A DNA stretch of 32,000 nucleotides from Candidatus Helarchaeota ASGARD archaeon Hel_GB_B (GTDB taxonomy: Archaea > Asgardarchaeota > Lokiarchaeia > Helarchaeales > HEL-GB-B), in contig SUPR01000020.1 in the NCBI GenBank assembly GCA_005191425.1, positions 1-32,000 of the forward strand. The letters run 5' to 3'. The position numbers were made by a program, and so were the translations under genes. The notes beneath the pieces are model-generated. The model was not told the DNA's origin, did not search any database, and was given only the letters and a program-made list of their open reading frames with translations. Shown in pieces: positions 2,802-32,000 of the stretch. How positions within the stretch are numbered: the stretch's first letter is position 1; each line of letters starts with the position of its first letter.

Positions 2802-2806
2802 TTCAT

Positions 2807-2814: not shown

Positions 2815-2857
2815 AAATCGTAATTTTTTATTGACAAAAGTTTGGTTTTTTCAATTT

Positions 2858-3251: not shown

Positions 3252-4232
3252 ATGAAAATTTACTGTTCTAAAAACTTTTTCGTTATTATGTTAATTGCAA
3301 TTGGTTTAATATTTTTAATATTATTTTTACCGTTAGATATACTTGAATTTCTATCAATAAATATAGTTGGAGGGCCACCAATTAATGGAAAAACATGGAT
3401 TGAAGGAGTATATGCAATAGGTGGGCCAATCTCTATGAGAATATTGGCTATTTTAGGTATATTAATAATATTATTAACAATTCCATTTATTTTAAAATTA
3501 TCAAAACCCAAATTAAGTGCTCGTAAAGTTAATAAATATGAATTATTTTTATTTTTTATTATTGCGTTTATATTTTTATTTATTAATTATGAAATTGGAT
3601 ATTCTTGGTGGGATTCAAATGCTTTTTTGGGAATGGGTCCACTGTTTTTTCAATCTATAATCAGTTTGATAGTATTGGGTTTATCACCCTTTTTTATAAA
3701 GAAGATTTTTAAATTGAAAAGCAGTGATTTTTTTTCATCTAAGGAGAATCTCAAGTCCAATTCAATAGTAGTGATAATAATTGCATTTGGATATGGTTTA
3801 ATTTCATTATTATGGCATTGTTGTTCTTTTTACAGTTATAAAATGTTTTTCTTTTTCTTTATTATTAAATTAATTCAGTTATGGGGCATTTGTAGCTTCT
3901 TTTATCAATGGAGTTTAAACATGTTGTTGAATATAATTAAAGATTGGAAGGCATATACTATTATTTCCATATTATTTGGCTTATGTTATCCTTGGCATAC
4001 ATTTGGATTTGCAATTACGTTTATATTTTTCGGGTTTTTAATCAGTTATTTAACAAGAAAAACAAAATCTTATTACACCGGGTTAATTTTATAATATTTT
4101 GCATATATATTCCATGCAGGATTAGCATGGAATGGTTCATTTATTACATTTTCATTAATTTATCCAATTACAATTGTTATCTGCTTGATAACCATATTTT
4201 ACAGTTCAAGGGGCATATTATTTAAAAAATAA
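3252..4232 (+). pseudogene. CPBP (CAAX protease/Abi)-like multi-pass membrane protein interrupted by one in-frame TAA at 4092-4094
   Basis: The ORF runs 3252-4094, and the same frame stays open for 45 hydrophobic codons (YFAYIFHAGLAW…GILFKK) to TAA 4230-4232. ILFGLCYPWH…FGFLISYLTRKTKSYYTGLIL resembles the CPBP C-terminal motifs, but the EExxxR motif is not evident. Confidence 0.6.
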
Positions 4233-4362
4233 TTATTTGAGATATAATTCGGAAAAAAATTATAAATTATTAGTTTTAAAGAATGATGTTGATTATTTAT
4301 TCAAGAAAAATTAACTGTTTAATGGATTTAAAAGAATAAGATTTACAAAAGGCCGAATTAAT

Positions 4363-5838: not shown

Positions 5839-5842
5839 TAGA

Positions 5843-6601
5843 CTGATTGAAATAATATCATGGAATGTAAATGGCATACGAGCTGCCATAAAAAAGGGTT
5901 TCTTAGCTTGGTTCAGAAAAAGGAACCCAGATATTTTATGCATACAAGAAACAAAGTCATCCCCATTAAATTTATTCTTCGACATGCCAGAACATGATGG
6001 ATATTGGCATACGGCAGAAAAAAAAGGATATAGCGGCGTCGCCACCTTCACTAAGATAAGTCCGATGTCCATAAAGAAAAAATTCGCCGGTAATGACATC
6101 GATAAAGAAGGACGATTTTTACAATTAGAATTTGAAAAATTCTATTTAATCAATCTTTATTTTCCAAACGCACAACGCGAACTTAAAAGATTAGAATATA
6201 AATTACATTTTAATAATAAATTATTAGAACATATCGAAAAATTGAAAAAGAAAGGTAAAGGAATTGTTATATGCGGCGATTTTAATGCTGCTCATAAAGA
6301 AATTGACCTGGCAAACCCTAAAAATAATCAAAATAATGCCGGCTTTTCTCCTAAAGAAAGAGAATTTATTACTGAATTAATTAAAAAAGGTTATATTGAT
6401 ACGTTCAGAGAATTTGATAAAAACCCTGGAAAATATACTTGGTGGTCTTATAGGTTTAATACGCGGGCTAAAAATATTGGTTGGAGAATTGATTATTTTT
6501 TTATCAATGAAGAATTTAGACATATTTTAAAATCTGCCTTTATATTAAATGATGTAATGGGGTCAGATCATTGTCCAATTGGAATAATTCTTAATATATA
6601 A
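5843..6601 (+). CDS. xth: Exodeoxyribonuclease III / AP endonuclease; probable non-canonical start (CTG 5843), upstream of the ATG at 5984
   Basis: In-frame SWNVNGIRA and DILCIQETK lie upstream of the ORF-track start. Also GYSGVA, YFPNA, ICGDFNAAH, GYIDTFR, YTWWSYR, GWRIDYF and GSDHCP. Confidence 0.92.
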   Translation: MIEIISWNVNGIRAAIKKGFLAWFRKRNPDILCIQETKSSPLNLFFDMPEHDGYWHTAEKKGYSGVATFTKISPMSIKKKFAGNDIDKEGRFLQLEFEKFYLINLYFPNAQRELKRLEYKLHFNNKLLEHIEKLKKKGKGIVICGDFNAAHKEIDLANPKNNQNNAGFSPKEREFITELIKKGYIDTFREFDKNPGKYTWWSYRFNTRAKNIGWRIDYFFINEEFRHILKSAFILNDVMGSDHCPIGIILNI

Positions 6602-6675
6602 AATAGAAATTAAAAAATTCAATAAAAATTAAAATAATGAAAAATTTAATGCAAAAAATAGTCTATTATTATTTT

Positions 6676-7251
6676 TTATTCATTTAAAATAGCTTCGACC
6701 ATTTCTACTAGTCTATTTGGATCAGCGCCTAAAAGTTGACTGTTATAATTGCCGTCTTTATCAAATAATAATAGAAAAGGTATTGCATTAACATTGAAAA
6801 TATTTGCGTAAGTCATATACAATTTATTACCGACTTCAGTTTCTGTATCGATTTGGAGGACATTTAAAGAATCGTTGTATTTTTCTTTGAGTTCATGTAC
6901 CGTTCTTCCAATAAATTTACAAGGAGCACACCATTCAGCCCAGAAATCTACAAGAGTAGGTTTGCCTTTTAAAGTTTTAATTGGGACTTCCTTTTTTGCT
7001 CTCTCTTGCTCAAGGCGCTCTTCAGCCTCTTTAATTTTTCTGTCCAACCCGCCTTCATCAAGAAATCTTTGGATACTCCTAATTTCGTTTTGTAATTCCT
7101 CAATTCTTTTTTCCAGCAATTTTTCTTTTTTTGCTCTTTTCAATTCGTTTAATTCGCTTTCAATAGAACTCGCACTATTTGTTTGTAATCGATATAAATT
7201 CTCTTCTATTGGTTTTATATTAATATCTTGTCTCGTCATGATATTTACCAT
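6676..7251 (-). CDS. Thioredoxin-family protein with an N-terminal coiled-coil extension
   Basis: VDFWAEWCAPCK active site and a cis-Pro AIP motif. The first ~90 aa are E/K/L/R-rich and helical. The start may be ATG 7239. Confidence 0.88.
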   Translation of the reverse strand: MVNIMTRQDINIKPIEENLYRLQTNSASSIESELNELKRAKKEKLLEKRIEELQNEIRSIQRFLDEGGLDRKIKEAEERLEQERAKKEVPIKTLKGKPTLVDFWAEWCAPCKFIGRTVHELKEKYNDSLNVLQIDTETEVGNKLYMTYANIFNVNAIPFLLLFDKDGNYNSQLLGADPNRLVEMVEAILNE

Positions 7252-7815
7252 TCTTTTATTTAGTGGGTTTTTTTATAATTCTCAATTTTTTAAATATTGC
7301 TCTAAATATTTCCTATAAATTTTCGGAGCAAATGTTCCTAATCAAGTCTTCATTATTTAAAAATTTATATATTTTGAAATTTTTGCATATTTTTTTATTA
7401 GAAAAAGTATGAATTTTGAGAAATTAAACTTTAGACTTTAAATTGGCGTCAAACTCTAATAATTTAAATAAATGAATTGTTAGACATGCTAATAATATTC
7501 GGCATTCGGCATAGGATTTTAAATTAATAATTATATTATGGAACAATTATAGAAACTTACATGTAGCAGAATAAAAGTTAAATATAAAAAACTCAAGCTA
7601 AACTGCTCTATTTTTTTGGAGTTAATAAACCTTTTAAAATGATCAAGTCCCAAGGAAAAAACCGGCTAAGATATAGCTTTCAATTTGTAAGTTCGTTTGT
7701 CATATTTTTGTAAAAGTTTAATTTATAAAGTTTGAAATTATTGTCTTCAATCTAGCCATGGAAATTGAAAATTATTTTGAAAAATTGATTTTAAGACATT
7801 AAATTAGATTTTAAA

Positions 7816-8889
7816 TTAAAGAATTTTGCCACGAGCACTTATTTCCCATCTATCAATTATCTCATCATTTTCAATTATTGTAAAAAAGTCATATAAATTT
7901 ACAGTCGGGCATATATGTGGGGGAATTGCTTGGATTTTATTACCAATTTTTAGTTCAATTTCTTTATAAGATATTTGACAATGTTCTTCAGTTATTAATT
8001 GAGCTTTTATTTTATTTGACTCAATAAATTTTGGATAACCATCTAAATACACGCTTTTAGAGCCCATATCTAAAGTAGCCATTCGTTTAGAAGGCATACT
8101 TATAACTGTTGTTAAAATGGTCAATGCAATTTCAAATTCGGGAACAATTGGTGCATAATGATGATCCATAAACACATAAGTACCAGGTTGTATTTCTGTT
8201 ATTCCTGGATATTTTCCAGTATACTTATAAGTAGGAGTTCCACCTGCACTAATTATTGAAATATCAAGCCCTTCATTTTCAAAAAGTTCTTTTGTGTCAA
8301 TAACGAGTTTCATACATTTGTTAGTTTCAATTTTTCTGTTTTCTTCCTCTTTAATAAAGCTTAAATGTCCTTCATAAGCCATTAATCCTTTTAAATTTAA
8401 AAATGGGGATTTATCGACTAACCTTCCCAATTGAAGGGCAGGTTTACCGGGTTTAACCCCTGTCCTACCAAGCCCAACATCGATATCTATTAAAATATTT
8501 AATTCTGTATTATATTTCTGACTCAATCTATCTAAATCTTTTATATTTTTTTCTGAATCAACAGCTACTATTATTGTTTTACTTTTAGCCAGGCCAAGCA
8601 TTCTTACAATTTTCTCTTCTGAGACTATTTCATTTGCTATTAAGATATTATCAAAACCATTTTTAGCGAATACTTCAGCTTCTGAAACTTTTGCAACGGT
8701 GATTCCATTAGCTCCAGCTTTTAACTGCATTTGACCAATAGTTGGACATTTATGAGTTTTAACATGTGGCCTTAAATTAATAGAATTTTCTTTTGCAAAA
8801 TTAGCCATGAGTTTTATGTTATATTCCAACTTTTTCTTATCTATAATTAATGCTGGAGTCGAAATTTTATTTTTTAACTTTTCATCCAT
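7816..8889 (-). CDS. Fold-type III PLP enzyme, DSD1/D-threonine aldolase family
   Basis: TPALIID, LRPHVKTHKC (PLP lysine), DIDVGLGRTG, GLMAYEGH, SAGGTPTY, EIQPGTYVFMD, EEH, PPHICPTVNL. Confidence 0.9.
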   Translation of the reverse strand: MDEKLKNKISTPALIIDKKKLEYNIKLMANFAKENSINLRPHVKTHKCPTIGQMQLKAGANGITVAKVSEAEVFAKNGFDNILIANEIVSEEKIVRMLGLAKSKTIIVAVDSEKNIKDLDRLSQKYNTELNILIDIDVGLGRTGVKPGKPALQLGRLVDKSPFLNLKGLMAYEGHLSFIKEEENRKIETNKCMKLVIDTKELFENEGLDISIISAGGTPTYKYTGKYPGITEIQPGTYVFMDHHYAPIVPEFEIALTILTTVISMPSKRMATLDMGSKSVYLDGYPKFIESNKIKAQLITEEHCQISYKEIELKIGNKIQAIPPHICPTVNLYDFFTIIENDEIIDRWEISARGKIL

Positions 8890-9406
8890 AGTTGGTCCCT
8901 TGATTAAAATTTCTAAATGTAATATATAATTAAAAAAATAGTTTAGAGATAAATCTTTGGGTTTAAAAGATATTATAATTTATATCGTTATCTTAAAATT
9001 AGAAAAAAATCGTATAGAATTAAATTAAATCAGCTCATTTGTGTAATACTTTTCAATTTATTTGAATTTGCTTTTAATTTAATACAATCTAAATAAATGT
9101 TTAAGAAAAAATCTCATCATAACGGAATGATACCGATAAATTATTAAATATATATAACATCGAGAAAGTTAATTTTGAATATTTAGGATTTATTGAATAA
9201 ATCTATAAGATGTTTAATAATATAATTTAATAACAACAATAAAACAAAAAAAAAAATTCAATTTTACATCAATTATTCAATTATATTCTCGAATTTTATC
9301 TGGTTTAATTCTTTATTTTTTAATTTATGTTCAAAAAGTTATTAATACCCAATGTTCAAAAATAGATTTTAAAAAAATTTATATTTAGAAATAATATACT
9401 TAGTTT

Positions 9407-10474
9407 ATGAAAGTACTCGATTATCTTGACATATACAAACCAAAAATTAATGAAACAATTAAGAAAATATTTAATTATAAATTAGATAAAGTTAAAGCGC
9501 CAATTTTAAAAGGTTACTATTCAGAATTACTTGATTATTTTTTATCGGGTGGAAAAAGGCTTAGGCCTTTAATTTGTATAGCAAGTTATAATGCTTTCAA
9601 AAAAGAAAAAGATGAAAGAATTATTTTTCCAAGCGTAGGAATTGAATTTTTGCATAATGCATCTTTAATACACGATGATATAATTGATAGAGATGATTTT
9701 AGAAGAAATAATCCGGCATTTCATTATAAGTTTAGAAAATATCATGAAGATCACCATCTAAAAAAGATGGATAAATATCATTACGGAACATCAATGGGGA
9801 TTATTGGGGGTGATTTTGCGTTTTTTATTGGATTAAATGCATTTTCTAACAATGAATTTAATGAATTGAAAAATTTGAAGGCTGTAAATTATTATGCAGA
9901 AGCATTTTATGAATTGTGTGATGGTATTTTAATTGAAATGGATATGATAAACAGGAATGATTTGATAATTGATGAATATATTGAAATGATCTCTCTAAAA
10001 ACTGGTGCATTAATTCAAAAATCAATGTTAATAGGAGCCATGTATGCAGATGCTCCAGAAAATGCTTTGAATTATTTAGGAAATTATGGTATTAATGTAG
10101 GGATAATATTTCAAATTATAGACGATATTTTAGGTACTTTTGGAGATGAAAAAGTAACAGGAAAACCTATAGACGGTGATATTAGAGAAGGGAAAAAAAC
10201 ATGTCTTTTAATTAAAGCATTACAGAATTTAGACCAAAATAAAAGGAACGAATTAATTAATTTAGTCGGGAAAAATAATATTACACAGGATGAAATTAAT
10301 AAAGTTAGGGAATTATTTAAAGAATCAGATGCCATTAACGCATGCATGGAATTAGTTAATAAGTATAAGGATTTAGCCAAAAATCAACTTGAACAAATTC
10401 AACAAGAGATAAATCAATCAGAATTTGAGTTTTATGAAAATCTATTAAAGTACGTATCTGAGCGGTCATTTTAA
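9407..10474 (+). CDS. trans-Polyprenyl diphosphate synthase (GGPP synthase-like)
   Basis: GGKRLRP, FARM LHNASLIHDDIIDRDDFRR, KTGAL, SARM FQIIDDILG…GKPIDGDIREGKKT. Convergent with fni, overlapping by 4 nt. Confidence 0.93.
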   Translation: MKVLDYLDIYKPKINETIKKIFNYKLDKVKAPILKGYYSELLDYFLSGGKRLRPLICIASYNAFKKEKDERIIFPSVGIEFLHNASLIHDDIIDRDDFRRNNPAFHYKFRKYHEDHHLKKMDKYHYGTSMGIIGGDFAFFIGLNAFSNNEFNELKNLKAVNYYAEAFYELCDGILIEMDMINRNDLIIDEYIEMISLKTGALIQKSMLIGAMYADAPENALNYLGNYGINVGIIFQIIDDILGTFGDEKVTGKPIDGDIREGKKTCLLIKALQNLDQNKRNELINLVGKNNITQDEINKVRELFKESDAINACMELVNKYKDLAKNQLEQIQQEINQSEFEFYENLLKYVSERSF

Positions 10475-11559
10475 TATTTCGGCTGCTCTAACCATCTATA
10501 CAAATTACCAAGAATTATTATTTTTTTATGATTACCTTTTAATTCTTCTATATTTTTTACATTCAATAACCACAAACATGATCTGATTTCATTTTTTAAA
10601 GTCTTGATTTCATTAATAGTATTTAAAATTGAATTCTCTTCAAGGTCTTTCCAAGCAGACACTAAAAAGTTATATGCGAGCCCGCCAAAATCTGCACCCA
10701 GAATAATTGATTTTACTATATCTATTCCAGAACGTATTCCTCCAGTAGCAATAATCAATTTTTTTGAAATATTTCTTACATATAATATACTAACAGGAGT
10801 AGGAATGCCCCAGTTTTTGAAGATATCAGCGGGTTTACGGGTAAATTTCTTTGGATAATTATTTCTTATTGATTCTATTGCTGAAAAATTAGTCCCACCA
10901 TATCCACCAATATCAAACCCATCAAATCCAAGAGAATCAAGTTTAATTGCTATTTCTTTATTAAAACCTGTCCCTGTTTCTTTTGCAATTATTGGGATAT
11001 CAAATTGCGCCCTTATTTTAGTGAAATTTTTCTCAAACAATTTATATGAAGTATTCCCATTAGGTTGTAACATTTCATGTAAAGCATTAAAATGTATAGC
11101 AATAGCATCTGCATTAATCATATCAATACATTTCTGGAAATCATTTTCTTGAAAATCTTTATCACTAATTTGCCCGATTCCAATATTTCCTATCTTAGGG
11201 ATATTAGGTGCTATCTCATTAATTATTTTAAATGAGTCGATATTTGCAGGCTTTTCAAGTGCTGCGCGCTGACTTCCCACCCCTAGTACAATATTCTCTT
11301 TTTCAGCGGCATTTGCCAATATTTTATTTATTTTTTTAGATATTGGATGACCACCAGTCATTCCAGCAATACAAATAGGTGCATCGATAACTTTATTAAA
11401 AAAATTTACCGAAATGTCTATTTCATTTATATCATATTCTGGAAGAGAATGATGGACAAACTTAATATATTTAAAGTAATTTTCAGAAGTTTGTACATCA
11501 AATTCAATTGGAATTTTAAGGTGATCAAGTTTTCTATCTATAATTTTTTCATCAACCAC
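10471..11559 (-). CDS. fni: Type 2 (FMN-dependent) isopentenyl-diphosphate isomerase
   Basis: IAGMTGG, GVGSQRAAL, HFNALHE, KETGTG, GGYGGTNF, WGIPT, ATGGIRSGID. GTG start. Confidence 0.95.
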   Translation of the reverse strand: MVDEKIIDRKLDHLKIPIEFDVQTSENYFKYIKFVHHSLPEYDINEIDISVNFFNKVIDAPICIAGMTGGHPISKKINKILANAAEKENIVLGVGSQRAALEKPANIDSFKIINEIAPNIPKIGNIGIGQISDKDFQENDFQKCIDMINADAIAIHFNALHEMLQPNGNTSYKLFEKNFTKIRAQFDIPIIAKETGTGFNKEIAIKLDSLGFDGFDIGGYGGTNFSAIESIRNNYPKKFTRKPADIFKNWGIPTPVSILYVRNISKKLIIATGGIRSGIDIVKSIILGADFGGLAYNFLVSAWKDLEENSILNTINEIKTLKNEIRSCLWLLNVKNIEELKGNHKKIIILGNLYRWLEQPKY

Positions 11560-11670
11560 TGGTCAAACCCTTTAATTTTTTAAAAATTACAACTTAATAT
11601 TCAATGTTAATAAAAAATAAATTAATTCTATTTATATTGATATTCTGGCTGAATAATATTGTCATTTATT

Positions 11671-12468
11671 TTATTTGATTATTGTTGATGGTATATAATT
11701 ATTTTTAAGAGATTTGAAAATGTAATCATCTTTCAAACCATTAATTAATTGGACAGGTATTTTTAAACCAATAATTTGCTTGATTTTATTAATTTTCTCT
11801 TCAATACCACCAGTTACATCAATTTTGTCCACAAATTTAGCTAATTTTAGTCCTTGTAATTCCGATGAATTTACTGAAGTGAGTAATGTGGGTGAATTTT
11901 CATCAGATTCGATATAAATTCCATCTTGGTCCATTGCAAAAATTACCTTTTCTATTTTATAATTTTTGATGTTATCGCATATTTCAACGATAATTTCATC
12001 GCCAGAAATTATAGAAAATGACTTTTTAGTATCAAAAATAATATCACCATATAATATTGGAACAATTTCTAATTTTAAGAGTAATTCAATTTTATAGATT
12101 AATTTTGACGATGTTATATTTCCATTTTTAAGAAAGATGCTAGATGGGTCAATTGAAATTGCAGGAACTCCGTTGTTAATAAATTCTTTTACTATAAATG
12201 AATTAAATTCAACCATAGCTTGGTGAGTTTTTGCCAACCCTAAGCACTGGTCTTTAATTTCGGGATTAAAACCGTCAACAATTTTAAATTTTTTAGCTAA
12301 AGGGTGTCCAAATGACCCCCCGCCATGAATTAAAATTATTTTCTCATTACTTTGAATAATTTGATAAATACATTTTTTAACGACTTTTCTCCTTAAGGAA
12401 AAAGGTTTATCTTTATCCGTTAATAAGCTACCTCCAAGTTTAATGATTTTGATATTATTATTGCTCAT
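11671..12468 (-). CDS. ipk: Isopentenyl phosphate kinase; likely start is ATG 12468, overlapping the mvk stop
   Basis: IIKLGGSLLTDK, IHGGGSFGHPLA (with the IPK His), VPILYGD, ISGDEI, DVTGGI..K. Confidence 0.93.
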   Translation of the reverse strand: MSNNNIKIIKLGGSLLTDKDKPFSLRRKVVKKCIYQIIQSNEKIILIHGGGSFGHPLAKKFKIVDGFNPEIKDQCLGLAKTHQAMVEFNSFIVKEFINNGVPAISIDPSSIFLKNGNITSSKLIYKIELLLKLEIVPILYGDIIFDTKKSFSIISGDEIIVEICDNIKNYKIEKVIFAMDQDGIYIESDENSPTLLTSVNSSELQGLKLAKFVDKIDVTGGIEEKINKIKQIIGLKIPVQLINGLKDDYIFKSLKNNYIPSTIIK

Positions 12469-13435
12469 CAATTTTCGCCCCAATTCGGTCAATTTTTACA
12501 ATAAATGTTTTGAATCCATTCTTATTTAACTCTTTAGCTATTTTTTTTAGGTCCGTCCCTATTGAGATTACATGACCACCTAAACCTGCACCAGTGAGTT
12601 TTGACCCAAAAGCGCCAGCATTAAGTGCAATATCGTTAATTTGTGATATAATAGAATTAGATACACCAAGTGCTGATAAAAGACCTTGGTTAATTTTCAT
12701 CAAGAGTCCAACATTAATAAAATTATTTTTGGTGAGTTCAATTCTGGCTTTATCAGTAATCTTACCGATAGAACTAAAGATTTGGTCTGTTATTTCAGGA
12801 TATTTAGTAATAATCTTTTTTATTTTAGTTATTGCTTGACTTGTTTGGTGCTCAATACCTGTATATGTCAATATTATATGAAAATCTTCGGGTATATTTA
12901 ATAGTTCAAATCTCTTTTTTTTAAAATAAATAATATTTCCAAATGTACACGTTGTATTGTCAATTCCTGAAGGTGTTAGGTGTATAAATTTTTCCATTTC
13001 AAATGCAAATTCCGAAATTTTAGATTTATTCAAATTCAATTGATAAAATTCATTAAAAGCTGAAATCATTGCTACTGCAATAGATGCAGAAGATCCCAAG
13101 CCAGATGCCGGAATAATTGATGAACTTAAAGTGATCCTTATTTTTTTTATTGGATTTTCTATCAATTTCGAAATCATTTGAACTCCATTTTTAATGTGAG
13201 AGAATTCAGCAGGAATATCATTTATAAATTGGGTAAAATTTTTGAATTTAAAGTATTTATTAAAATTTTTAAGATTTAATTCAATTTTATCATCACTGAT
13301 CTCTTCTATTCTACACCTCGACCTTAAATTAATCCCCAATGCAATAGCCGGATGCCCATAAACTACAGCATGTTCTCCAAATAGGATGCATTTTCCCGGC
13401 GCAGATGCAGAAATACATTTATTAAAGTTTTTCAC
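12458..13435 (-). CDS. mvk: Mevalonate kinase
   Basis: SAPGKCILFGEHAVVYG, PASGLGSSAS (GHMP ATP loop), SGIDN, SKLTGAGLGG. GTG start. Confidence 0.95.
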   Translation of the reverse strand: MKNFNKCISASAPGKCILFGEHAVVYGHPAIALGINLRSRCRIEEISDDKIELNLKNFNKYFKFKNFTQFINDIPAEFSHIKNGVQMISKLIENPIKKIRITLSSSIIPASGLGSSASIAVAMISAFNEFYQLNLNKSKISEFAFEMEKFIHLTPSGIDNTTCTFGNIIYFKKKRFELLNIPEDFHIILTYTGIEHQTSQAITKIKKIITKYPEITDQIFSSIGKITDKARIELTKNNFINVGLLMKINQGLLSALGVSNSIISQINDIALNAGAFGSKLTGAGLGGHVISIGTDLKKIAKELNKNGFKTFIVKIDRIGAKIDEQ

Positions 13436-23247: not shown

Positions 23248-25425
23248 CTAAATAATACCTATCAATATTATAATTAAATAATTGAATATTGAATATGTCA
23301 TAATGAATAGGGGAAAAAATGTTAGTGCCATATTATTAATAGTAGTAACAAAACTTCCAAGACTTGAACCGGCAGTATCTTTACACGGATCACCTACCGT
23401 ATCACCAATAACAGCCGCCTTATATGCTTCAATTGTTTCGGGCTTGGATTTATCTCGGAGTGTTTTGCGTAATTTTTTTGCATTGTCCCAGCTTGCACCA
23501 GCGATATTTAAATAAATACCCATAGCCCCACCAACGAAGGTACCGATTATTAAGAATGCACCAGCGGTTAGTGGACCTAGAAATATTCCAACTATTATAG
23601 GCATAGTTATAATTAAAATTGAAGGTGAGATCATATTTTTTAATGCAGATTTTGTGCTTATATCAACACAAATATCATAATCTGGTTTCTCTATGTCTTG
23701 CATTATACCGGGTTTAACTCTAAATTGTCGTCTAACTTCCTCGATCATATCAAATGCAGTTTTTCCGACAGCTCTCATTAACATCGAAACAAACATAAAA
23801 ACAGTTGCAACACCAAAAATTCCACCAATTGCGATTTGTGGGAGCCCAATATTAATAATTGGAGCAAATCCAGCATCTTCTAACAGCTGTAAATATGCAA
23901 AAATGGTAACAAATCCTATAACAGTCCCACTAATAATTGAAAATCCTTTCGTAAGTGATTTGGTACTATTTCCAGTCGCATCTAATTTGTCTATATTACT
24001 ACGAATTTCAGGTTCCATATTTGCCATTTCGGAAATTCCACCAGCATTGTCAGAAATGGGCCCAAACCCGTCCATTGATAATATTATACCTGTTCCACTT
24101 GTCATCCCCATTGCCATTAGGACAATTCCATAAATTCCACCCGTAGATAAAGATACTGTAAGATAACTTACTTGTAAAGCAAAAGCTAGACCACAACCAT
24201 AAGCTCCCAAAATTAAAATTCCCATGATAATTAATGGTATAAAAACAGACCTCAGACCATTAGCCATTCCAGATATTATAGTAGTAGCAGGCCCTGTCTC
24301 GGATTCATCTGAAATTTCTTTGACTGCCTTCGAATTAAATCCAGTATATCGTTCGACTATTTTTCCTATTAGTAGATTCGCAATTATACCAAATATTGCA
24401 GCAAATACTAAAAAAATCGACGAAAAAATAACATAGATAGAAATTACATAAAATACTCCAATTAATAGACTACTAATATAAAGCCCTTTATTTAATAATT
24501 TCCATATATCTTTCTCTTTTTCCGCTTTTTTACTCATATTCACAATAAAATAACCAATTATAGTTGAAATAGCCGCAATAAACCTAACCAAAAACGGAAA
24601 AAATATTAATGCCTCACTAGCCATTCCACCTGATAACTCCCATAATGCTAATCCCAGTATCATTGATGAAATTATTTCTGAGGTTAATGTCTCGTAAAGA
24701 TCAGCACTTCTGCCAGCACAATCGCCAACATTATCTCCAACTGCATCGGCAATTACTGCAGGATTTCTATGGTCATCTTCAGGAATCCCTGCTTCAAGTT
24801 TTCCGACTATGTCTGCACCGATATCGGCCCCCTTCGTAAAAATCCCGCCCCCTAATTGGGCAATAACTGAGGTAAAAGAGCTCCCAAAAGCACATCCAGC
24901 AATATTTAACATTACAGTATGATAGTCCATATTCATTAAATATCTGAAAATTGAAAAAGTCACTATTATTTGAATTATATTTATTCCAAATACTAATAGC
25001 CCCATAATCGTCCCGCCATCAAACGCAGTTTTGGTCGCATTTAAAAGCCCCTTCTTAGCTACTAATGTTACTCGAACATTCGTCCTGGTTGCCAAGTCCA
25101 TTCCTATAAAACTTGCAGCCAACGATGTAATTGTACCAATTAAGTATGAGAGTCCTACCCACCCATTTGAAACAAAACCAAAGTAAAAATCGGAAATACC
25201 AAATACTAAGAAAAGTAAAATAGCTATTAACAATGTAATAATTAAAATAGTTTTGAATTCTCGCTTCATATATGCTTTTGCGCCAGTTCTAATTGCTTTG
25301 AATATTTCATTTGTTATACCAGTACCAGTTGATAATTTACTTACTTTAAACCAGAGATATAAAGCAAATCCTATGGATAATGATCCAGCAATAGTACCAA
25401 GCATTAAAAATAAAAGTGGTATCAT
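23248..25425 (-). CDS. hppA: Membrane-bound H+-translocating pyrophosphatase, predicted K+-independent
   Basis: GGGIFTKGADIGAD…EDDHRNP…GDNVGD, DGFGPISDNAGG, LDATGNSTK (Lys489), WDNAKK, GDTVGDP.KDT. Many TM helices. Confidence 0.95.
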   Translation of the reverse strand: MIPLLFLMLGTIAGSLSIGFALYLWFKVSKLSTGTGITNEIFKAIRTGAKAYMKREFKTILIITLLIAILLFLVFGISDFYFGFVSNGWVGLSYLIGTITSLAASFIGMDLATRTNVRVTLVAKKGLLNATKTAFDGGTIMGLLVFGINIIQIIVTFSIFRYLMNMDYHTVMLNIAGCAFGSSFTSVIAQLGGGIFTKGADIGADIVGKLEAGIPEDDHRNPAVIADAVGDNVGDCAGRSADLYETLTSEIISSMILGLALWELSGGMASEALIFFPFLVRFIAAISTIIGYFIVNMSKKAEKEKDIWKLLNKGLYISSLLIGVFYVISIYVIFSSIFLVFAAIFGIIANLLIGKIVERYTGFNSKAVKEISDESETGPATTIISGMANGLRSVFIPLIIMGILILGAYGCGLAFALQVSYLTVSLSTGGIYGIVLMAMGMTSGTGIILSMDGFGPISDNAGGISEMANMEPEIRSNIDKLDATGNSTKSLTKGFSIISGTVIGFVTIFAYLQLLEDAGFAPIINIGLPQIAIGGIFGVATVFMFVSMLMRAVGKTAFDMIEEVRRQFRVKPGIMQDIEKPDYDICVDISTKSALKNMISPSILIITMPIIVGIFLGPLTAGAFLIIGTFVGGAMGIYLNIAGASWDNAKKLRKTLRDKSKPETIEAYKAAVIGDTVGDPCKDTAGSSLGSFVTTINNMALTFFPLFIMTYSIFNYLIIILIGII

Positions 25426-25647
25426 ATTTTTTACACTCTGTATTTGTTTTTGTATATTCTTAAGATTGATAAAATTAGATAATCGATTTCAAATTTCATT
25501 TAATAATTTTTTTCAAAGTTTTATCATGAATTAAAATTAAGTAATAAATAAAGGAATATTTTAAAAAAAAATAAAAAACAAATATCAAATATTTATTAAA
25601 TAAAAAAGTCCAAATTTTAATTGAAAAATTCATTTTGAATTTATATT

Positions 25648-26775
25648 TTAATTTTTGTATATTCCATATTTTTTACCGGCATTTATCATAGCTTGTACAT
25701 TAATAAATTTAGCATCAGATGCAACTTCACAACCAGAACCTAAAATAAACCCCCCACCCTCTTTACACTTTTCAATGATGCGTTTACAATATTTATCTAC
25801 CTCCTTCGCTGTTCCAATAGATAGTATGGTCGAACTTACATTCCCCATTAAACACATTCTATCTCCGAGAATTTCCTTCGCCTTAATTATATCTGTATTT
25901 TCAAGGTGCAAGATATACCTCCCATTTTTTGGTAATTCTAAAAAATATTCAAGAAATGGCCCCCAATTTGTGTCCATATGAAAAAGATTTGTATATCCAA
26001 GCTTATTATTAATTTTAACAATTTGTTTTATATATGGTAAAACTAAATCTTCGAATATCTCTGCCGAAATAAAATTATTGGAAACTCGTTCAAGACAAAT
26101 ATAGGATCTATTTACCCTTACTAATTTTTTCAAAAATAAATCGTTTGCAATTAGTCCTTTTATCATGAAATCACACATTTCCTTTAATTCTTCTCTATTT
26201 TTATGAAGATATCGAGACCACCTCTTTATACCGCATAAATAAGACAGGGTTTCCAGCGGAGTAATATTGGCAGAACCAGTATATACTGGGACTCTCCTTT
26301 TTTTCTCCCAATAATTAATGAATTTAGCAATCTTAAACATGTCCATTTGCGTCCTGAAAATTTTCCGAGGAGAAACATATCTCCAAATTGAACTAAAACC
26401 ACTTTTCATTATATTCTTAAAATCTTCAATTTTGAGGATCGGACGCTCAATAAACTGCAAACTACCATTTCTTAAATGCGGTATATTTAACTCACTAAAA
26501 AAACCAGAATGTGCTGCAGGTATAGGCTCGTAAAATGCATATACTCTACCAATTGGAATATGCACCATATCTAAATCACGACCATGTCTTTCATATGTTG
26601 TTTTTACTGCCCGCGCCGCTATCTTAAAATCTCCCAAAACATATTCAGCTGGCGTGATACCCGCACAATTTGCATAATAATAGTCCATTAATGGTGCAAT
26701 AGGTACCCTATCTGGCTCTTTTAATAATACTGCCGTATTAAATCGTTCCATCGAAGTCATTTCGTCCTTTTTCAT
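25648..26775 (-). CDS. Uroporphyrinogen decarboxylase / MtaA-CmuA family TIM-barrel protein
   Basis: N-terminal ERF…EPDRVP, and C-terminal AKEILGDRMCLMGNV…GTAKEV…GGGFILGSGCEV. Confidence 0.8.
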   Translation of the reverse strand: MKKDEMTSMERFNTAVLLKEPDRVPIAPLMDYYYANCAGITPAEYVLGDFKIAARAVKTTYERHGRDLDMVHIPIGRVYAFYEPIPAAHSGFFSELNIPHLRNGSLQFIERPILKIEDFKNIMKSGFSSIWRYVSPRKIFRTQMDMFKIAKFINYWEKKRRVPVYTGSANITPLETLSYLCGIKRWSRYLHKNREELKEMCDFMIKGLIANDLFLKKLVRVNRSYICLERVSNNFISAEIFEDLVLPYIKQIVKINNKLGYTNLFHMDTNWGPFLEYFLELPKNGRYILHLENTDIIKAKEILGDRMCLMGNVSSTILSIGTAKEVDKYCKRIIEKCKEGGGFILGSGCEVASDAKFINVQAMINAGKKYGIYKN

Positions 26776-26781
26776 ATTCTT

Positions 26782-27096
26782 TCACTTGAACTCCATTTTG
26801 CTATTTCTTTTCATATGTCTCATTCTATCTATAATGTAAAAATTCAGCCCGATATAATCACTAAATATACCAAAACTCATATCTCGAGTTGCATTTATAA
26901 TAATCCGCAATAAATATGGTAGACTAACTAATATCGCATAAATAAAATGAAAAAAATCCCATAAAATTAATCTATAATAAAACAATCGAACTTGATTCTT
27001 GTTTTTTCTTGAATTAAACTTTGTACCAAATAGTAATTCTTTATAATAATTAAGATATTCATTATAATTTAATTTCTCATCAGTCAATTTTCTCAC
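26782..27096 (-). CDS. Small hypothetical protein, probably co-transcribed with the URO-D-family gene
   Basis: GTG start, one hydrophobic segment, stop 6 nt before the next ATG. Confidence 0.45.
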   Translation of the reverse strand: MRKLTDEKLNYNEYLNYYKELLFGTKFNSRKNKNQVRLFYYRLILWDFFHFIYAILVSLPYLLRIIINATRDMSFGIFSDYIGLNFYIIDRMRHMKRNSKMEFK

Positions 27097-27279
27097 AGTT
27101 AATTAAAAATAATTTAAAATTTTTCGAAAGTTTGATTTTTTATAAATCATTCATCAAATTAAATAAAAACACATTATATATAAAAATTTAAAAAACTATG
27201 GAAGAAGAATTAAGATTTCAACTATTATAAACCCATTCTAATTTAAATTTTCAAACGTTAATTAAAAAAATATTAATAA

Positions 27280-28296
27280 TTAGATTGTATCTTCAATTTT
27301 TATTTTAGGTGGATTGATAATCTCTTCTATTGTATTATTTTTATATAATTTATTGGCAAATATATACAAATTTTCAAAATCTAAAGGCTCATTTGCTTCT
27401 TGTTCTAAAGTCCAATAATATGTGGGAAGTCGATGCTTTAAATCCTTGATCCTTAATAACTGATTTTCTCGCATTTTTCTTAAAAATTCATTGTCTTTTA
27501 TAACACTTTCTCCAATTATTTTGTTTATATAGACCGCATCAACTTCATGATACACCGCAAACATATCAACTGCCCTTATTGTCTCCTGAATTGCAGCCCA
27601 TTCTGGAATCGAAACAAGTCTTAATGTCAAATATTTTTCTATTATTTTGTTTACAATATCTCCTCTCTTTTTTAACTTTTTTAAATAATCAAGTAATTGA
27701 GAAAGAGGACTATTTAAACTTAACATTTTTGTGGGGTTCAATGCCCTTCGGACACCCTCATATGCTAACACAATCGGTGCTCTATAACTTAAAAAATTAG
27801 TCATCAACTCCTGAACAAAAAATTTTGGGACTTCCAATAAATTAATCGTCCCGCCAGTTGGAGGAAAATCCGATATTATAAACGAATATTCTTTTGATTT
27901 TGCCGCATTAAAAAAGAGCTGAAAAAAAGCAGACACTTTAGCTTGCTTCGGTAAATTGGAACTTTGAAGCATAGATTCAATTAATATTTTTAAAGAGGGG
28001 ACCATATTTGGTATAGCAAGGTCATAGATTGTTTTTTTCATTAACTTGAAAATCGGCTCTGAATACTCTTTTATATAATGTTCTGGGTCTGGCTCTATTA
28101 CATCTAAATAATCTGATACTGGTGTTATTTTATCTCCAATTTTCTTGTTGAAGATATCACTCAAATTATGCGCTATATCAAATGAAATTAATAACGTCTT
28201 CTCCTGCAAATCTTGAGATAACTTCACCGCTGTCGCACTTGATATAGTGGTCTTTCCTACACCACCTTTACCACTGAATATAAATACTTTTTTCAT
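27280..28296 (-). CDS. ArsA/GET3 (TRC40)-family ATPase
   Basis: Deviant Walker A SGKGGVGKTT, D.AH.LSD switch I, D.PPTG switch II, V.IPE…ET.R, and YINK. SD-like AAGGTG upstream. Confidence 0.88.
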   Translation of the reverse strand: MKKVFIFSGKGGVGKTTISSATAVKLSQDLQEKTLLISFDIAHNLSDIFNKKIGDKITPVSDYLDVIEPDPEHYIKEYSEPIFKLMKKTIYDLAIPNMVPSLKILIESMLQSSNLPKQAKVSAFFQLFFNAAKSKEYSFIISDFPPTGGTINLLEVPKFFVQELMTNFLSYRAPIVLAYEGVRRALNPTKMLSLNSPLSQLLDYLKKLKKRGDIVNKIIEKYLTLRLVSIPEWAAIQETIRAVDMFAVYHEVDAVYINKIIGESVIKDNEFLRKMRENQLLRIKDLKHRLPTYYWTLEQEANEPLDFENLYIFANKLYKNNTIEEIINPPKIKIEDTI

Positions 28297-28635
28297 TGAA
28301 ACACCTTAAAGTTGAAATTTATTTGAAAATTTAAATTTTATTTTAATTTGGTAAAATAGTATTATTCATTAAACATATATAAATTTAAGTTATGTCTCTC
28401 TATTAATAAAAAATATTTTCAGTAATTGAAACAAATTTCTTCTAAAATTTCAAAAATTAAATAAATTAAATACTCTTTTTTATCTTTTACTAAAAATAAT
28501 CGAAAATTTTTTTACTTACAATTTACTATTTAAAAGATACAAATATATTGAAAATAATTAAAATCAATACCTAATTAATTTCCCATTTATAATTTATACC
28601 CTTCTATATTAATCACCTCATTTAAAAATTTAATT

Positions 28636-29355
28636 GTGGAAAATATAATGCAAACTAAAAATTTGATCTCTGATAAAAAAGGAATAATATTCTGCGATTT
28701 AGAAGGTGTATTGACTGAATTAAAATCTACTTGGGAAAAATTAAATATTGAACTGGGGATGTCTGAAAAAGAAGACTACGACCTTTATAATAAATTCATC
28801 TCTGGATCATTAGATTATCCTGGTTGGGCTAACGAAATTTATTCAAAATGGAAAAAATATTCCGAATTTAAATTGACTAAAAAATTTTTTCAAGATTTTT
28901 TTGAGCAAAATCTTCTTATTAGAAAAGGTGCAATATCTTTTATTGAAAAATGCAAAAAAAACTTTATTTTTGTGGTAATTTCAGGGTCTCCTGATATGAA
29001 CTGTAGACTAGCAAAAGAAAAACTAAATTTTGATAGATATTATTCCTTAAATAAATTAATCTTTGATTCAAATAGAAAATTAATCGGAATTTTTGGCGAT
29101 AAAAATGGCTTCAATAAAGATAAAATTATGACTAAAATTATTGAAGAATATAACTTTAAATTAGACCAAAGTATAGCTATTGGAGATTCTGAAAATGATA
29201 TTACAATGCTAAATAAAGCAAAATTGGGAATTTTAATCGGCGAAAATTTAAAATTTCCCAGAATGTTAAATAAATTAAAAACAAATATTATTAAACTTAA
29301 GAAATTAGATTTTGAGAAACTTATCAAAATAATAAATAAAAAATTTGATATTTAG
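28636..29355 (+). CDS. HAD-IB phosphatase (SerB/ThrH-like); alternative start ATG 28648
   Basis: Motif I CDLEGVL (DxE variant), motif II ISGS, motif III NKDK, motif IV AIGDSENDITML. Confidence 0.88.
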   Translation: MENIMQTKNLISDKKGIIFCDLEGVLTELKSTWEKLNIELGMSEKEDYDLYNKFISGSLDYPGWANEIYSKWKKYSEFKLTKKFFQDFFEQNLLIRKGAISFIEKCKKNFIFVVISGSPDMNCRLAKEKLNFDRYYSLNKLIFDSNRKLIGIFGDKNGFNKDKIMTKIIEEYNFKLDQSIAIGDSENDITMLNKAKLGILIGENLKFPRMLNKLKTNIIKLKKLDFEKLIKIINKKFDI

Positions 29356-29366
29356 ATAATAAAACT

Positions 29367-29393
29367 TCAGTTAACGACTCTCCCGGAGTCCTT
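29367..29393 (+). repeat. Left arm of a perfect 27-bp inverted repeat, tcagttaacgactctcccggagtcctt
   Basis: Its exact reverse complement is at 31152-31178. A 23-bp match also occurs at 31221-31243 and a 15-bp match at 31086-31100. Confidence 0.95.
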
Positions 29394-29508
29394 GTGTAAT
29401 ATGCTAAACTTAAAAAAAATTTATATCTCTATGCGCCTATTAAGAGAACAAGCTAGACAGGTCATTGAACAATGCAAAAAACAAGGTATCGAAATTGTAA
29501 ATTGGTAG
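29368..29508 (+). other. Silent LRR C-terminal cassette with no start codon: QLTTLPESLCNMLNLKKIYISMRLLREQARQVIEQCKKQGIEIVNW*
   Basis: Not in the ORF track. It is colinear with the last LRR plus C-cap of the LRR gene on the opposite strand (KLKTLPESFYILNNLIYLNIENNPLDESTIERLEELRSRGVSVYY). Homology begins abruptly at 29367. Confidence 0.85.
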
Positions 29509-29735
29509 TTTATTCAACATGATTTCATTTTAATTTAAATTTGTCCTGTTCTTTTTCTATATTTTTTGTTAATATTTTCCTTTTTTACCTAATTTTATTT
29601 CATAATACAAATTCATAATTATATTACATTCCAGTCTCTTTTTCTATTCAAGACAAAGTAAATATTATTTAATTTTGAAGATTTAAGTACCTTTTATTTC
29701 GGGTTAAAAATTCAAATTGGAGCGTGGTAATTAAT

Positions 29736-30771
29736 ATGAATATAGAATTGGTCAATAGATTAATTTTAGATGCTAAAAATATTTGTAATGCAGAGAATTT
29801 AGCCCCGTCTACTATTAAAAAAACTCAATACATTGAGACGTATTTTTCTAGGTATCGAGGACTTGACGCCCTCGGCTATAATTGAATGGGTCGAGCAGTA
29901 TAGGTATGGTGCTCACAACACAGAGTTAAGTCCTCATGGAAAAAATAACTACTACACCGCAATCAAATGGTATTTAGCAAGGGCTACTCTAGTAAAATAT
30001 CCAAAAGAGGAATTGAAAAAAATCAAAAAAGTACCTGTCAGGCCAAAAGACCGCAGTGTGGACGATTTGGCACTAGAACACATCTTGCAATTTTCACCAA
30101 ATACTACTTTTGAGCTGGCATTTCGATTGATAAGAGAGCGCGGCATAAGGCCGCATGAATTACTTTCAATCAGGGTAAAAGATGTTTCCAAGTCAGAGGA
30201 AGGTTATGCGGTCGTGTCATTACAAGCAGAGAACCCCGAAGTCCCTTCAAGAAGGAACAAGACTGGCCCGAGGACTATAATATTTGTGCGAAATGCAGCT
30301 CGAATTCTAGAATTAGTCAGAGTGGTAGGTGCGGGTACAGGCCCTGAGGGCAGGCTCTTTCCATGGCGTCATGGAGTACTATCAGTTATATTCTGTAGAA
30401 TGAAAAAAATGCAGGAAGAAGTGGCGAGAAGAGAAGGCTGGAACAATTTATATAGGGGTAGGTTATATGATTTAAGACATGCTGCAATTACAGAGATGTA
30501 TGTCCATGGTTTCGTAGACCAAGAAGTGCGTGCCATGGTCGGCTGGGCTCCATCTTCTAAGATGCCGGATATTTATGTCCACATCGGGACAAAACACCTG
30601 CTAGATGCTTGTAAGAGAAATGAAACAAATTACATAAATATTGAATCAAACAAGAGAAATTTAGGACTCAAGGAAACCCATTTCGGAACATTTAATAAAA
30701 TAGTAAATAATTCAAAATTATACAGAAAATTTCCGGACAACGCCAATGAAATTAATTTCTATATAAAGTAG
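29736..30771 (+). mobile_element. Tyrosine recombinase/integrase (archaeal type) with a +1 frameshift at the A7 run 29817-29823; the intact downstream frame starts at TTG 29833
   Basis: Catalytic motifs G.RPHE (R), NKTG (K), YDLRH, and GW..SSKM..IY (W, Y). The upstream frame from ATG 29736 encodes …ENLAPSTIKK, the first helix of an integrase N-terminal SAM-like domain. GC is well above that of the flanks. Confidence 0.88.
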
Positions 30772-30970
30772 ATTACCTACAACTAATTTCCAAATGATGT
30801 AAACAAAATAAGAACAAAATTAGATTAAAATAAGGGATTAATAAAAGTAAGAGAGAAAAAAATAATTTTATTTAGTAAAAAGGCATGAATTGAAAAAATT
30901 ATAGTAATATAATTTTATTATAAGTAGCTGATACTCCAAATATCATTATTATTAAGTATTAACTACATTT

Positions 30971-31513
30971 TCAATAATAGACTGAAACACCTCTGGAACG
31001 TAGTTCTTCTAATCGTTCTATCGTACTTTCATCAAGCGGGTTATTTTCAATATTTAGGTAAATTAAATTATTTAATATATAAAATGACTCCGGGAGAGTC
31101 TTTAACTTATTGTCATTCAATTCAAGTTCTTGGAGTGATTTTAGGTCCCCAAAGGACTCCGGGAGAGTCGTTAACTGATTGTCCTGCAAATCAAGTTCTT
31201 GGAGTGATTTTAGAGTACCAAAGGACTCCGGGAGAGTCGTTAATTGATTCCAGCTTAAATCAAGTATTTGGAGGTTAGTTAGCTTGAGTATGGGCTCCGG
31301 GAGATTCTTTAATCTGCATTCATAAAGTCCCAGTCCCAATATTTTATTATCGTCCAATACCATCCCAAAAGTATCCCGTTCTATTTCATTTACTTTTGGG
31401 ATTGGCTTACCAATCATATTTTCCAATTCGGATATTATATATGAATTTATTTGTTTGGTCACATAATTTATTACATATTCATAATGCATATTCATAATGG
31501 GGATAATTTTCAA
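30971..31513 (-). CDS. Leucine-rich repeat protein, C-terminal part (Loki-type cap, about 4 LRRs, C-cap)
   Basis: ELENMIGKPIPKV…FGMVLDDNKILGLGL cap, then 23-aa repeats NQLTTLPESFG.LKSLQELDL. Confidence 0.92.
   Translation of the reverse strand: MKIIPIMNMHYEYVINYVTKQINSYIISELENMIGKPIPKVNEIERDTFGMVLDDNKILGLGLYECRLKNLPEPILKLTNLQILDLSWNQLTTLPESFGTLKSLQELDLQDNQLTTLPESFGDLKSLQELELNDNKLKTLPESFYILNNLIYLNIENNPLDESTIERLEELRSRGVSVYY
31086..31307 (-). repeat. Coding tandem repeats with a 69-bp period (LRR units)
   Basis: Core gactccgggagagtc (+ strand) at 31086, 31155 and 31224, with a degenerate copy at 31293. Spacing is exactly 69 bp. Confidence 0.95.
31152..31178 (-). repeat. Right arm of the perfect 27-bp inverted repeat
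   Basis: aaggactccgggagagtcgttaactga is the reverse complement of 29367-29393. Confidence 0.95.
31474..31499. repeat. Perfect 13-bp tandem duplication (catattcataatg x2) that frameshifts the LRR gene
   Basis: Copies at 31474-31486 and 31487-31499. Removing one copy fuses the upstream ORF (…ENYPHYEY) to VINYVTKQ… of the LRR ORF. Confidence 0.92.
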
Positions 31514-32000
31514 TAAGGTAATCTTTTAGATTTAAGAAGCCAGTAAAAGCTTCATTCAAATTACCGGCTAATTTATTCAGTATGATTGGGTTAATTTTAT
31601 TGAAAATATCTTTATGGTTGTAGATTAAATTAATAAAATTTTTTAAAGAGGTAGACTGGGTGTTAGTTAAGAATTTATTTTGTGTTAAAATATCAAGGTC
31701 ATTATTGATTTTGTTATAATCGAGTTGATTTTTTAAAAAATATTGAGACAGAAGGAATGGGAGGTAAAATTTTTCGATTTGATAAAATTTTTGGTTATTA
31801 ATAACGTTAATGTGGGCAATACCCGAATTTAATAGATTTATTTTAAATTCATTTGGTATCTGTTTATTTATCAAGTATTGGTCAAGAATTCCAAGAGTGT
31901 GATTATCTAAAATGAAAGTTGTGATTTGATTTAGGTATGTGACGTAATTATCATTAAATCCAATGCGGAAAAGTAAAGTATTTTGGGCTGGGATGTCATG
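31479..32000 (-). CDS. N-terminal portion (5'-truncated by the window end) of the frameshifted LRR gene; domain unknown
   Basis: The frame is open from 32000 (HDIPAQNTLLFRIGFND…) through the track ORF to TGA 31481-31479, which is created by the 13-bp duplication. Confidence 0.75.
   Translation of the reverse strand, partial: HDIPAQNTLLFRIGFNDNYVTYLNQITTFILDNHTLGILDQYLINKQIPNEFKINLLNSGIAHINVINNQKFYQIEKFYLPFLLSQYFLKNQLDYNKINNDLDILTQNKFLTNTQSTSLKNFINLIYNHKDIFNKINPIILNKLAGNLNEAFTGFLNLKDYLIENYPHYEYAL

Follow-up and report, generated by a model that had tools for sequence, protein, structure and literature searches.

The locus

The stretch of DNA analysed here, referred to as the window, consists of 32,000 nt of contig SUPR01000020.1 from Candidatus Helarchaeota archaeon Hel_GB_B (assembly GCA_005191425.1; 3.54 Mb, 182 contigs, 28% GC), and coordinates are positions in the window unless another contig is named. 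Near its right-hand end, a tyrosine recombinase gene lies between two convergent leucine-rich repeat (LRR) coding ends: a silent LRR cassette (cap B) behind a HAD-family hydrolase gene on the left, and an NLR-type LRR gene ending in another tail (cap A) on the right. The window ends inside the NLR-type gene, and the contig (C95, 40.5 kb) continues beyond it. With a rough probability of 0.8, this arrangement is a site-specific inversion switch that alters coding sequence, in which the recombinase between the convergent LRR ends swaps the tail of the NLR sensor. The features of the locus, including its open reading frames (ORFs), are collected in Table 1.

Table 1. Features of the locus in the window (the contigs L037 and L016 and the run X2 are described under the two orientations)
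Feature	Position	Strand	Remarks
HAD-family hydrolase gene	28636..29355	+	Pfam Hydrolase_3/Hydrolase/HAD; fixed left flank, outside the switch
Left recombination arm, TCAGTTAACGACTCTCCCGGAGTCCTT	29367..29393	+	Encodes QLTTLPES; perfect inverted repeat; left breakpoint in L037 and L016
Cap B cassette, silent, startless	29368..29508	+	Arm, 38-codon tail and stop codon
Invertible segment as observed	29394..31082		Cap B tail, spacer, recombinase gene, spacer, cap A tail
Recombinase N-terminal ORF	29724..29885	+	First helix of core-binding domain; frame lost at A7 tract 29817-29823
Recombinase catalytic ORF	29833..30771	+	PF00589; frame open from 29803
Cap A, C-terminal tail presently joined to NLR gene	30971..31081	-	Translation
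Arm of LRR unit R1	31083..31109	-	24/27; right breakpoint in L037, L016 and an X2 contig
Arm of LRR unit R2	31152..31178	-	27/27 partner of left arm
Arm of LRR unit R3	31221..31247	-	26/27
13-bp tandem duplication, CATATTCATAATG twice	31474..31499		Splits NLR reading frame
NLR-type gene, 3' part	30971..32000	-	Gene start at contig position 33422, beyond the window; LRR families

A perfect 27-bp inverted repeat, formed by the left arm and the arm of unit R2, links cap B to the LRR units of the NLR gene, and 100 shuffles of the window put the number of such matches expected by chance at 0. The neighbouring units carry the same arm in slightly altered form, with longest exact runs of 23 bp in R3 and 15 bp in R1, which agrees with the 23-bp and 15-bp neighbour matches listed in the initial annotation of the window. 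The left arm includes a 15-bp dyad core, GACTC-TCCCG-GAGTC. When up to three mismatches are allowed, the 27-mer occurs at only four places in the whole genome, all of them at this locus, and is thus not spread among unlinked LRR paralogues. The cassette begins 11 nt past the HAD stop codon, has no start codon upstream of its arm, and its similarity to the LRR gene begins precisely at 29367. The annotated layout of a startless LRR cassette facing an LRR gene across a tyrosine recombinase, with homology starting exactly at the repeat, is therefore borne out by translation, by the PF00589 match and by the position of the homology boundary. The silent cassette also shares the reading frame of the HAD gene, from which only the TAG stop and four codons separate it (29353-29370). 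Readthrough would fuse both, and the shared frame is probably a coincidence (1 chance in 3).

Two orientations in sister strains

Orientation was compared between contigs and metagenome-assembled genomes (MAGs), and the evidence from sequencing runs (X1-X4) consists of assembled Logan contigs. The opposite orientation is present in L037, a contig of 163 kb that belongs to a sister Helarchaeota MAG; its recombinase lies within the same 90% cluster as that of the window. In reverse complement (rc), the left flank of L037 (rc(L037) 298-5689), which contains an ArsA-type ATPase gene and the HAD gene, is collinear with window 24001-29393 at 98.6% identity over 5.4 kb. The inverted part, rc(L037) 5665-7404, corresponds to the window read backwards from 31107 to 29368 at 98.7%, covering 1,740 bp from arm to arm. 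The right flank, rc(L037) 8206-12909, is again collinear with contig positions 31082-35801, from the NLR gene onward, at 92.8% over 4.7 kb. The NLR gene of L037 is an intact ORF of 1088 aa that has about 17 LRR units and ends in cap B, and cap A lies silent beside the HAD gene.

The initial annotation had predicted an in-frame product of inversion between the arms, with the present C-terminus moving to the silent position behind the HAD gene, and had asked for both orientations in relatives. The predicted product exists as the intact L037 gene, the end of which differs from it by one residue. L016, an independent 2.6-kb contig from a k=141 assembly, also has cap A silent beside the HAD gene, and in rc(L016) 2533 of 2581 bases are those of the predicted inversion product. 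In run X2, one contig joins unit R1 to cap B, with the two on opposite strands and 66 nt on the short side, and another contig covers cap A, R1 and the R2 arm in the window arrangement. Two natural states with unchanged flanks, both giving in-frame products, are thus represented by the window on one side and by the near-identical L037 and L016 together with the X2 joint on the other. Moreover, more than one crossover has occurred, since the X2 junction of R1 with cap B differs from the L037 junction.

An assembly artefact was considered as the source of the inverted orientation and rejected. The 27-bp repeat is shorter than the assembly k-mers, and the arms of L016 and L037 share at most about 15 exact bases. 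Exact identity between the L037 arms is limited to the 15-bp dyad core, and a mis-join by the assembler is implausible for L016 because its two arms have only about 12 exact bases in common. The L016 arms are hybrids: the arm on the HAD side has the TCAG of the left arm and otherwise reads as R1, and the arm on the NLR side has additional substitutions.

The sensor gene is evolving fast, judging from the difference in the number of LRR units between the strains and from its more diverged flank. When L037 2380-5646 is compared with the NLR gene of the window, the NLR flank is 92.8% identical with 30 gaps, as against 98.6% for the housekeeping flank. In run X4, from marine sediment, one contig matches the HAD gene as far as 29352, beyond which its sequence is unrelated, and some related strain may accordingly lack the module at this position.

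The NLR-type LRR gene

The product of the NLR-type gene begins with a hydrophobic, Gly-rich N-terminus, followed by a P-loop NTPase and a helical region, and closes with four LRR units of 23 residues each and cap A. The Walker A (GSGKT) and Walker B (DGLDE) motifs are visible in the contig translation of the gene, and the C-terminal LRR domain is matched by LRR_4, LRR_8 and LRR_14. In the L037 orthologue, NPHP3_N, a NACHT-clan model, reaches 46.4 bits (cut-off 24.8), with NACHT (21.2 versus 26.7) and nSTAND5 (27.6 versus 34) falling just short of their cut-offs. The architecture is called NLR-like because NPHP3_N lies above threshold and the NTPase is followed by LRRs. A search of the NLR with PADLOC matched no known defence-system model and returned coiled-coil-type matches only. 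An immune-type sensor role would fit this architecture and the TIR, SIR2 and PIN genes found at other loci of the same kind.

The LRR ORF at 31513..30971(-) is the 3' part of this larger gene, cut off by the 13-bp duplication. The break is of strain or assembly level and does not mark a fixed pseudogene, since the duplication is missing from the contigs of runs X1, X2 and X4 and the NLR gene is uninterrupted in the sister MAG. Elsewhere, G000 contig C108:9975-10409 (+) contains an intact small gene in which the Gly-rich hydrophobic N-terminal domain of the NLR is fused directly to a pair of LRR units and a tail of the cap B type. It lacks the NTPase and resembles a 'mini' paralogue of the NLR sensor.

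The recombinase

The catalytic ORF of the recombinase matches PF00589 (Phage_integrase) at residues 82-252 with 33.5 bits, above the cut-off of 27.1. In an alignment with XerA of P. abyssi (4a8e), the segments GIRPHEL, LRH, GW and IY match the catalytic Arg, Arg-His, Trp and Tyr, respectively. The first His position of HxxR is a Tyr here, and the catalytic Lys was not placed in this alignment. The catalytic ORF is under purifying selection, with a dN/dS of 0.30 between the G001 and L017 orthologues. The gene has 39% GC, compared with 28% for the genome.

The N-terminal core-binding domain is not contiguous with the catalytic ORF, as its first helix lies in the other frame. The joint between the two frames, an A7 tract, was located by means of unsplit homologues that read straight through, and the contigs of three runs contain no indel at this tract. 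The interruption recurs in all seven members of the subclade in differing forms: A7 in the window and G001, T6 in L029 and A6T5 in L035, all of which need a +1 shift; A9 in L017 and A8 in L030, which need a -1 shift; and an in-frame stop codon in L023, where no shift but readthrough would be needed. The recombinases of the deeper relatives L025, L032 and L034 are unsplit. The split may be a conserved device that keeps the full-length enzyme scarce, through homopolymer slippage or an internal start. It is probably not decay, because it is conserved in the subclade and the catalytic ORF is under purifying selection.

Frameshifts in both the recombinase and the LRR gene had led the initial annotation to suggest that the system might be locked or decaying. 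Both are indeed present in the window, but the one in the NLR gene is specific to this assembly and absent elsewhere, and the recombinase split is a conserved feature of a gene with its catalytic ORF under purifying selection, so the suggestion of a locked or decaying locus is not upheld.

A tblastn search of the recombinase against 50,697 phage records gave no match at E <= 1e-3, the membership of phiCh1 in this collection being unverified. Among the JGI metagenome contigs, neither relatives of the recombinase nor an exact match to the 28-mer of the HAD-arm junction were found, and the exact HAD protein sequence has no entry in the protein collection. G000 contig C2:131-705 carries a decayed and truncated recombinase paralogue (53-74% identity) that has several stops, runs into the contig end and has no adjoining LRR. 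This copy and the recombinase fragments L026-L028, likewise without flanking LRRs, are taken to be decayed solitary copies.

The candidate recombination site

The sequence GTTAACGACTCTCCCGGAGTCC is 95-100% conserved in a set of 38 LRR units that represents three lineages. The conservation extends to third codon positions, where GC-rich codons are used in spite of a genomic GC content of 28%, and the other Leu codons of the same 38 units show far lower conservation. In unlinked LRR paralogues of this genome, the codons for the same peptide differ at 4-11 of 24 bases, apart from one exception with 2. The common core of the sites is the dyad GACTC-TCCCG-GAGTC. In the L032/L033 clade it reads CTCTC-TCCCA-GAGAG, with two compensatory changes that are achieved by Ser/Thr codon switches. 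At six more distant loci, third-position conservation amounts to 0.71-0.98 in the site codons and 0.62-0.76 in the rest of the unit. The pattern is suggestive of a recombinase site embedded in coding sequence. It is not proof of one, because gene conversion among repeats also homogenises them.

Conservation of the design across Asgard loci

Database searches recovered 42 relatives of the recombinase. Those with named sources come mostly from Helarchaeota, Lokiarchaeota and Promethearchaeota MAGs, and one distant relative has a Gammaproteobacteria label. The genomic context was examined for each relative on a sufficiently long contig. At all eight independent loci with enough flank (relatives at 34-65% identity), the recombinase lies between an LRR array on the plus strand to its left and one on the minus strand to its right, and every array closes with a complete C-terminal tail and its own stop codon. 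The synteny of LRR fragment, integrase and inverted LRR gene that had been proposed from the window alone therefore recurs throughout this set. Four integrases below 30% identity, taken as negative controls, have no adjoining LRR arrays.

The effector domains of the full-length genes vary among STAND NTPase, TIR_2, SIR2_2 with TPR, and PIN. The locus shared by the window, L016 and L037 has a STAND NTPase-LRR gene, G001 (with L013 and L018) a STAND-like NTPase-LRR gene that is disrupted in the G001 assembly, and L017 an intact STAND NTPase-LRR gene of 1743 aa. L023 encodes a SIR2_2-TPR-LRR protein of 1223 aa and L029 a TIR_2-LRR protein of 562 aa. LRR arrays lie on both sides of the recombinase at L025, where they contain a perfect 31-nt LRR-coded inverted repeat, at L031-L033 and at L035. 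Three further loci are partial, owing to contig ends or the lack of a right-hand array: L030, with a PIN-LRR gene of 301 aa, L034 and L036. The TIR-LRR and PIN-LRR loci (L029 8502-9932 and L030 1048-2856) adjoin a GmrSD-type nuclease gene and two toxin-antitoxin pairs, UPF0175/DUF3368 and nucleotidyltransferase/HepT, and these neighbourhoods are defence-island-like.

Within the subclade of the window, orientation and tail follow a simple rule. Cap B is expressed where the recombinase is co-directional with the full gene (L037, L016, L017 and G001), and cap A where the recombinase faces the gene (window). The same two tails recur on both sides of the switch: in L037, L017 and G001 the intact NLR ends in an expressed cap B tail, the cap A tail is the silent cassette beside the HAD gene in L037 and L016, and a tail of the cap A type is silent in L017. 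The silent tails retain open frames across species and therefore fit periodic use. G001 was tried as a clean inverted state of the window and set aside, since its orientation fits but its truncated, cap-B-like cassette gives no simple A/B swap.

L032 and L033 encode one and the same recombinase protein, yet exactly 14 units (966 bp) separate their left LRR arrays in length; L033 carries a long right-hand LRR array. Transfer of units by inversion and unequal crossing-over are indistinguishable in this pair because both right arrays reach contig ends.

Proposed mechanism

In the proposed mechanism, the recombinase would pair the site of the cassette with the site in one LRR unit of the gene. Strand exchange within the asymmetric spacer of the dyad or close to it would flip the 1.7-kb segment, recombinase gene included, and thereby exchange sensor tail cap A for cap B, with the other tail parked in the silent position. 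On this scheme the recombinase gene would always travel behind cap B and always face cap A. Every product would be in frame, because the site has the same codon phase (xLTTLPES codons) in each unit and in the cassette, and crossover at different units could alter the LRR number, since each unit carries the site. Recombination between direct units could, in addition, delete units. Because a homopolymer interrupts the N-terminus, full-length enzyme is probably scarce and flipping correspondingly rare. The likely benefit would be variation at the population level in the ligand-binding or regulatory end of an immune-type sensor, the two tails acting as its alternatives.

A wider reading may be put forward tentatively, although it is the less probable of the two: Asgard archaea (Helarchaeota, Lokiarchaeota and Promethearchaeota) might possess a dedicated recombinase clade with its site in the LRR consensus, which would allow any LRR unit of an immune-type sensor to recombine with a silent cassette, and inversions at various units together with deletions between direct units might create a population repertoire that varies in LRR number, order and cap.

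Weighing the inversion switch against alternative explanations

Several points weigh against an inversion switch run by this recombinase. In each of the seven close copies of the subclade, the N-terminal helix is separated from the rest of the enzyme by a frame shift or a stop codon, and without recoding or an internal start the enzyme would therefore lack part of its core-binding domain. The assignment of the flip to this recombinase is an extrapolation from sequence, as is flipping within a single clone, for which the basis is assembled contigs. The hybrid arms of L016, compared with the window, would not allow the point of strand exchange to be mapped. Sister strains differ by about 13 LRR units, with 4 in the window and about 17 in L037, which is beyond the effect of one inversion; unit number is thus labile. 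In G001, the silent cassette is truncated and resembles cap B, not the cap A type. The family is also rare, with matches at E <= 1e-10 in 4 of 400 representative Asgard genomes, and LRR arrays provide long imperfect homology that is usable by general recombination.

The last of these points leads to the explanation that is unlikely but the strongest of the alternatives, namely that general (RadA-type) homologous recombination occasionally flips the DNA between inverted LRR repeats by accident and that the recombinase takes no part in this, being a passenger such as the last trace of an integrated element. The inverted homology is indeed long in some loci, if imperfect (56 nt at 88% in L017 and 259 nt at 78% in G001), the interrupted N-terminus of all close copies would suit a passenger, and so would the solitary decayed copies without LRRs (G000 C2 and L026-L028). 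However, a passenger is not expected between convergent LRR ends at eight loci with different full-length genes, no other mobile-element gene is present, and the linkage is limited to this recombinase clade. Its catalytic ORF is intact and under purifying selection. The breakpoints lie inside the 27-bp arm, and the 15-bp exact core of L037 is very short for homologous recombination. Finally, the core is conserved even at synonymous positions, and its dyad shows co-variation between clades.

It is less probable still that the recombinase and the two LRR tails form a selfish mobile module that spreads among LRR genes, with inversion as a by-product. Such a module would account for its place beside LRR genes with unrelated N-terminal domains, for the differing neighbourhoods in G000 and G001, and for the 39% GC of the recombinase in a genome of 28%. 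On the other hand, direct repeats and target duplications are absent from its bounds, neither an excised form nor an empty site was seen, and each of the two tails is a complete protein end, in frame and conserved across species. This explanation is, moreover, compatible with the switch mechanism and changes only its beneficiary. The possibility that the cassette is a decayed paralogue fragment and the repeat residual similarity between LRR units is very improbable. LRR units are alike by descent, and the NLR gene is broken in the window assembly, but this origin does not explain both orientations with identical flanks, a 27-mer unique to the locus, or a layout kept at eight loci; furthermore, the silent tails retain open frames and the NLR is intact in other assemblies. 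The alternatives as a group are disfavoured chiefly because the clade-specific linkage spans different full-length genes, and the inversion switch remains the preferred reading.

Relation to known systems

The closest system is the Int1 region (ORF34-36) of the haloarchaeal viruses phiCh1 and phiH1, which has the same outline architecture as the present locus and is also archaeal. A central tyrosine recombinase is flanked there by convergent, repeat-containing tail-fibre genes with inverted repeats, and inversion determines which of the two 3' parts is read from the start codon and hence which protein variant is made (PMC6210493, citing Roessler 2004 and Klein 2012). The phiCh1/phiH1 region is viral and its target is a tail fibre (adhesin), whereas the present module is chromosomal, Asgard, directed at LRR proteins with immune-type domains, and has its candidate site in LRR codons. 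Within the scope of the phage search above, the recombinases differ in sequence as well.

The initial annotation had used the label shufflon. It fits in so far as the layout is that of a C-terminal swap by a tyrosine recombinase; the multi-segment aspect does not apply, as each locus has one segment and two tails. In the R64/IncI1 shufflon (Rci, sfx, pilV), a tyrosine recombinase likewise inverts between sites in coding sequence and exchanges C-terminal segments with silent cassettes. However, the R64 shufflon has several segments, seven sfx sites, seven pilV ends and its recombinase gene outside the segments, in contrast to the single segment, two tails, internal recombinase gene and sites in every LRR unit found here. 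A review of archaeal recombinases describes no direct relationship to Rci and mentions no Asgard enzymes (PMC8371274).

Inversions at bacterial Type I restriction-modification hsdS, DISARM and BREX loci are alike in that a nearby recombinase swaps a specificity part with a silent inverted partial copy and so creates variation in the population (PMC9881135, PMC7672463). The surveys of these loci cover bacteria only, and the module described here differs in being specific to LRR arrays and in having its own recombinase clade in Asgard archaea. Milman et al. 2023 did not scan archaea, and the text contains no mention of LRR or NACHT (PMC9881135). Another study includes only 42 archaeal datasets, all of them from Euryarchaeota or Crenarchaeota (PMC10028968), and a survey of Asgard defence makes no mention of recombinase, inversion or LRR (PMC11291487). 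The initial annotation had regarded the system as one not known to be described, and literature searches found no earlier description of this Asgard LRR inversion system.

The predicted sensors resemble bNACHT and Avs-type STAND sensors in having a STAND or NACHT-clan NTPase, a C-terminal repeat sensor and an N-terminal effector, and in several neighbourhoods that are defence-island-like. No described bNACHT or Avs gene is known to be rearranged by a recombinase, and literature searches likewise returned none. In jawless vertebrates, the gene for an LRR receptor, the variable lymphocyte receptor (VLR), is completed or varied by rearrangement with silent LRR cassettes, including alternative C-terminal caps. 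VLR assembly proceeds by gene-conversion-like copying, depends on cytidine deaminase, is somatic and draws on hundreds of cassettes. The likeness is one of idea only and implies no homology, since the process proposed here is a reversible, conservative inversion between two tails.

The comparison supports a known type of mechanism in a new host group and acting on a new class of target, the LRR sensors. Programmed inversions that alter genes have been described in bacteria and in two viruses of haloarchaea, and archaeal chromosomes have barely been examined for them. The targets in the present case carry NLR-, TIR-, SIR2- and PIN-type domains, which are domains of innate immunity across life; the candidate recombination site is embedded in the LRR repeat itself, and the host belongs to the archaeal lineage closest to eukaryotes. 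If the proposed function holds, variation of immune receptors by DNA rearrangement exists in prokaryotic LRR receptors, and the locus would provide a compact pair of recombinase and site, with a 15-bp dyad core, for experimental study. If the tentative repertoire reading were also true, the diversification of receptors by DNA rearrangement would have a prokaryotic counterpart among the archaea most closely related to eukaryotes. For annotation, it follows that ORFs labelled as LRR "fragments" and "frameshifted integrases" in Asgard MAGs should not be dismissed as junk.

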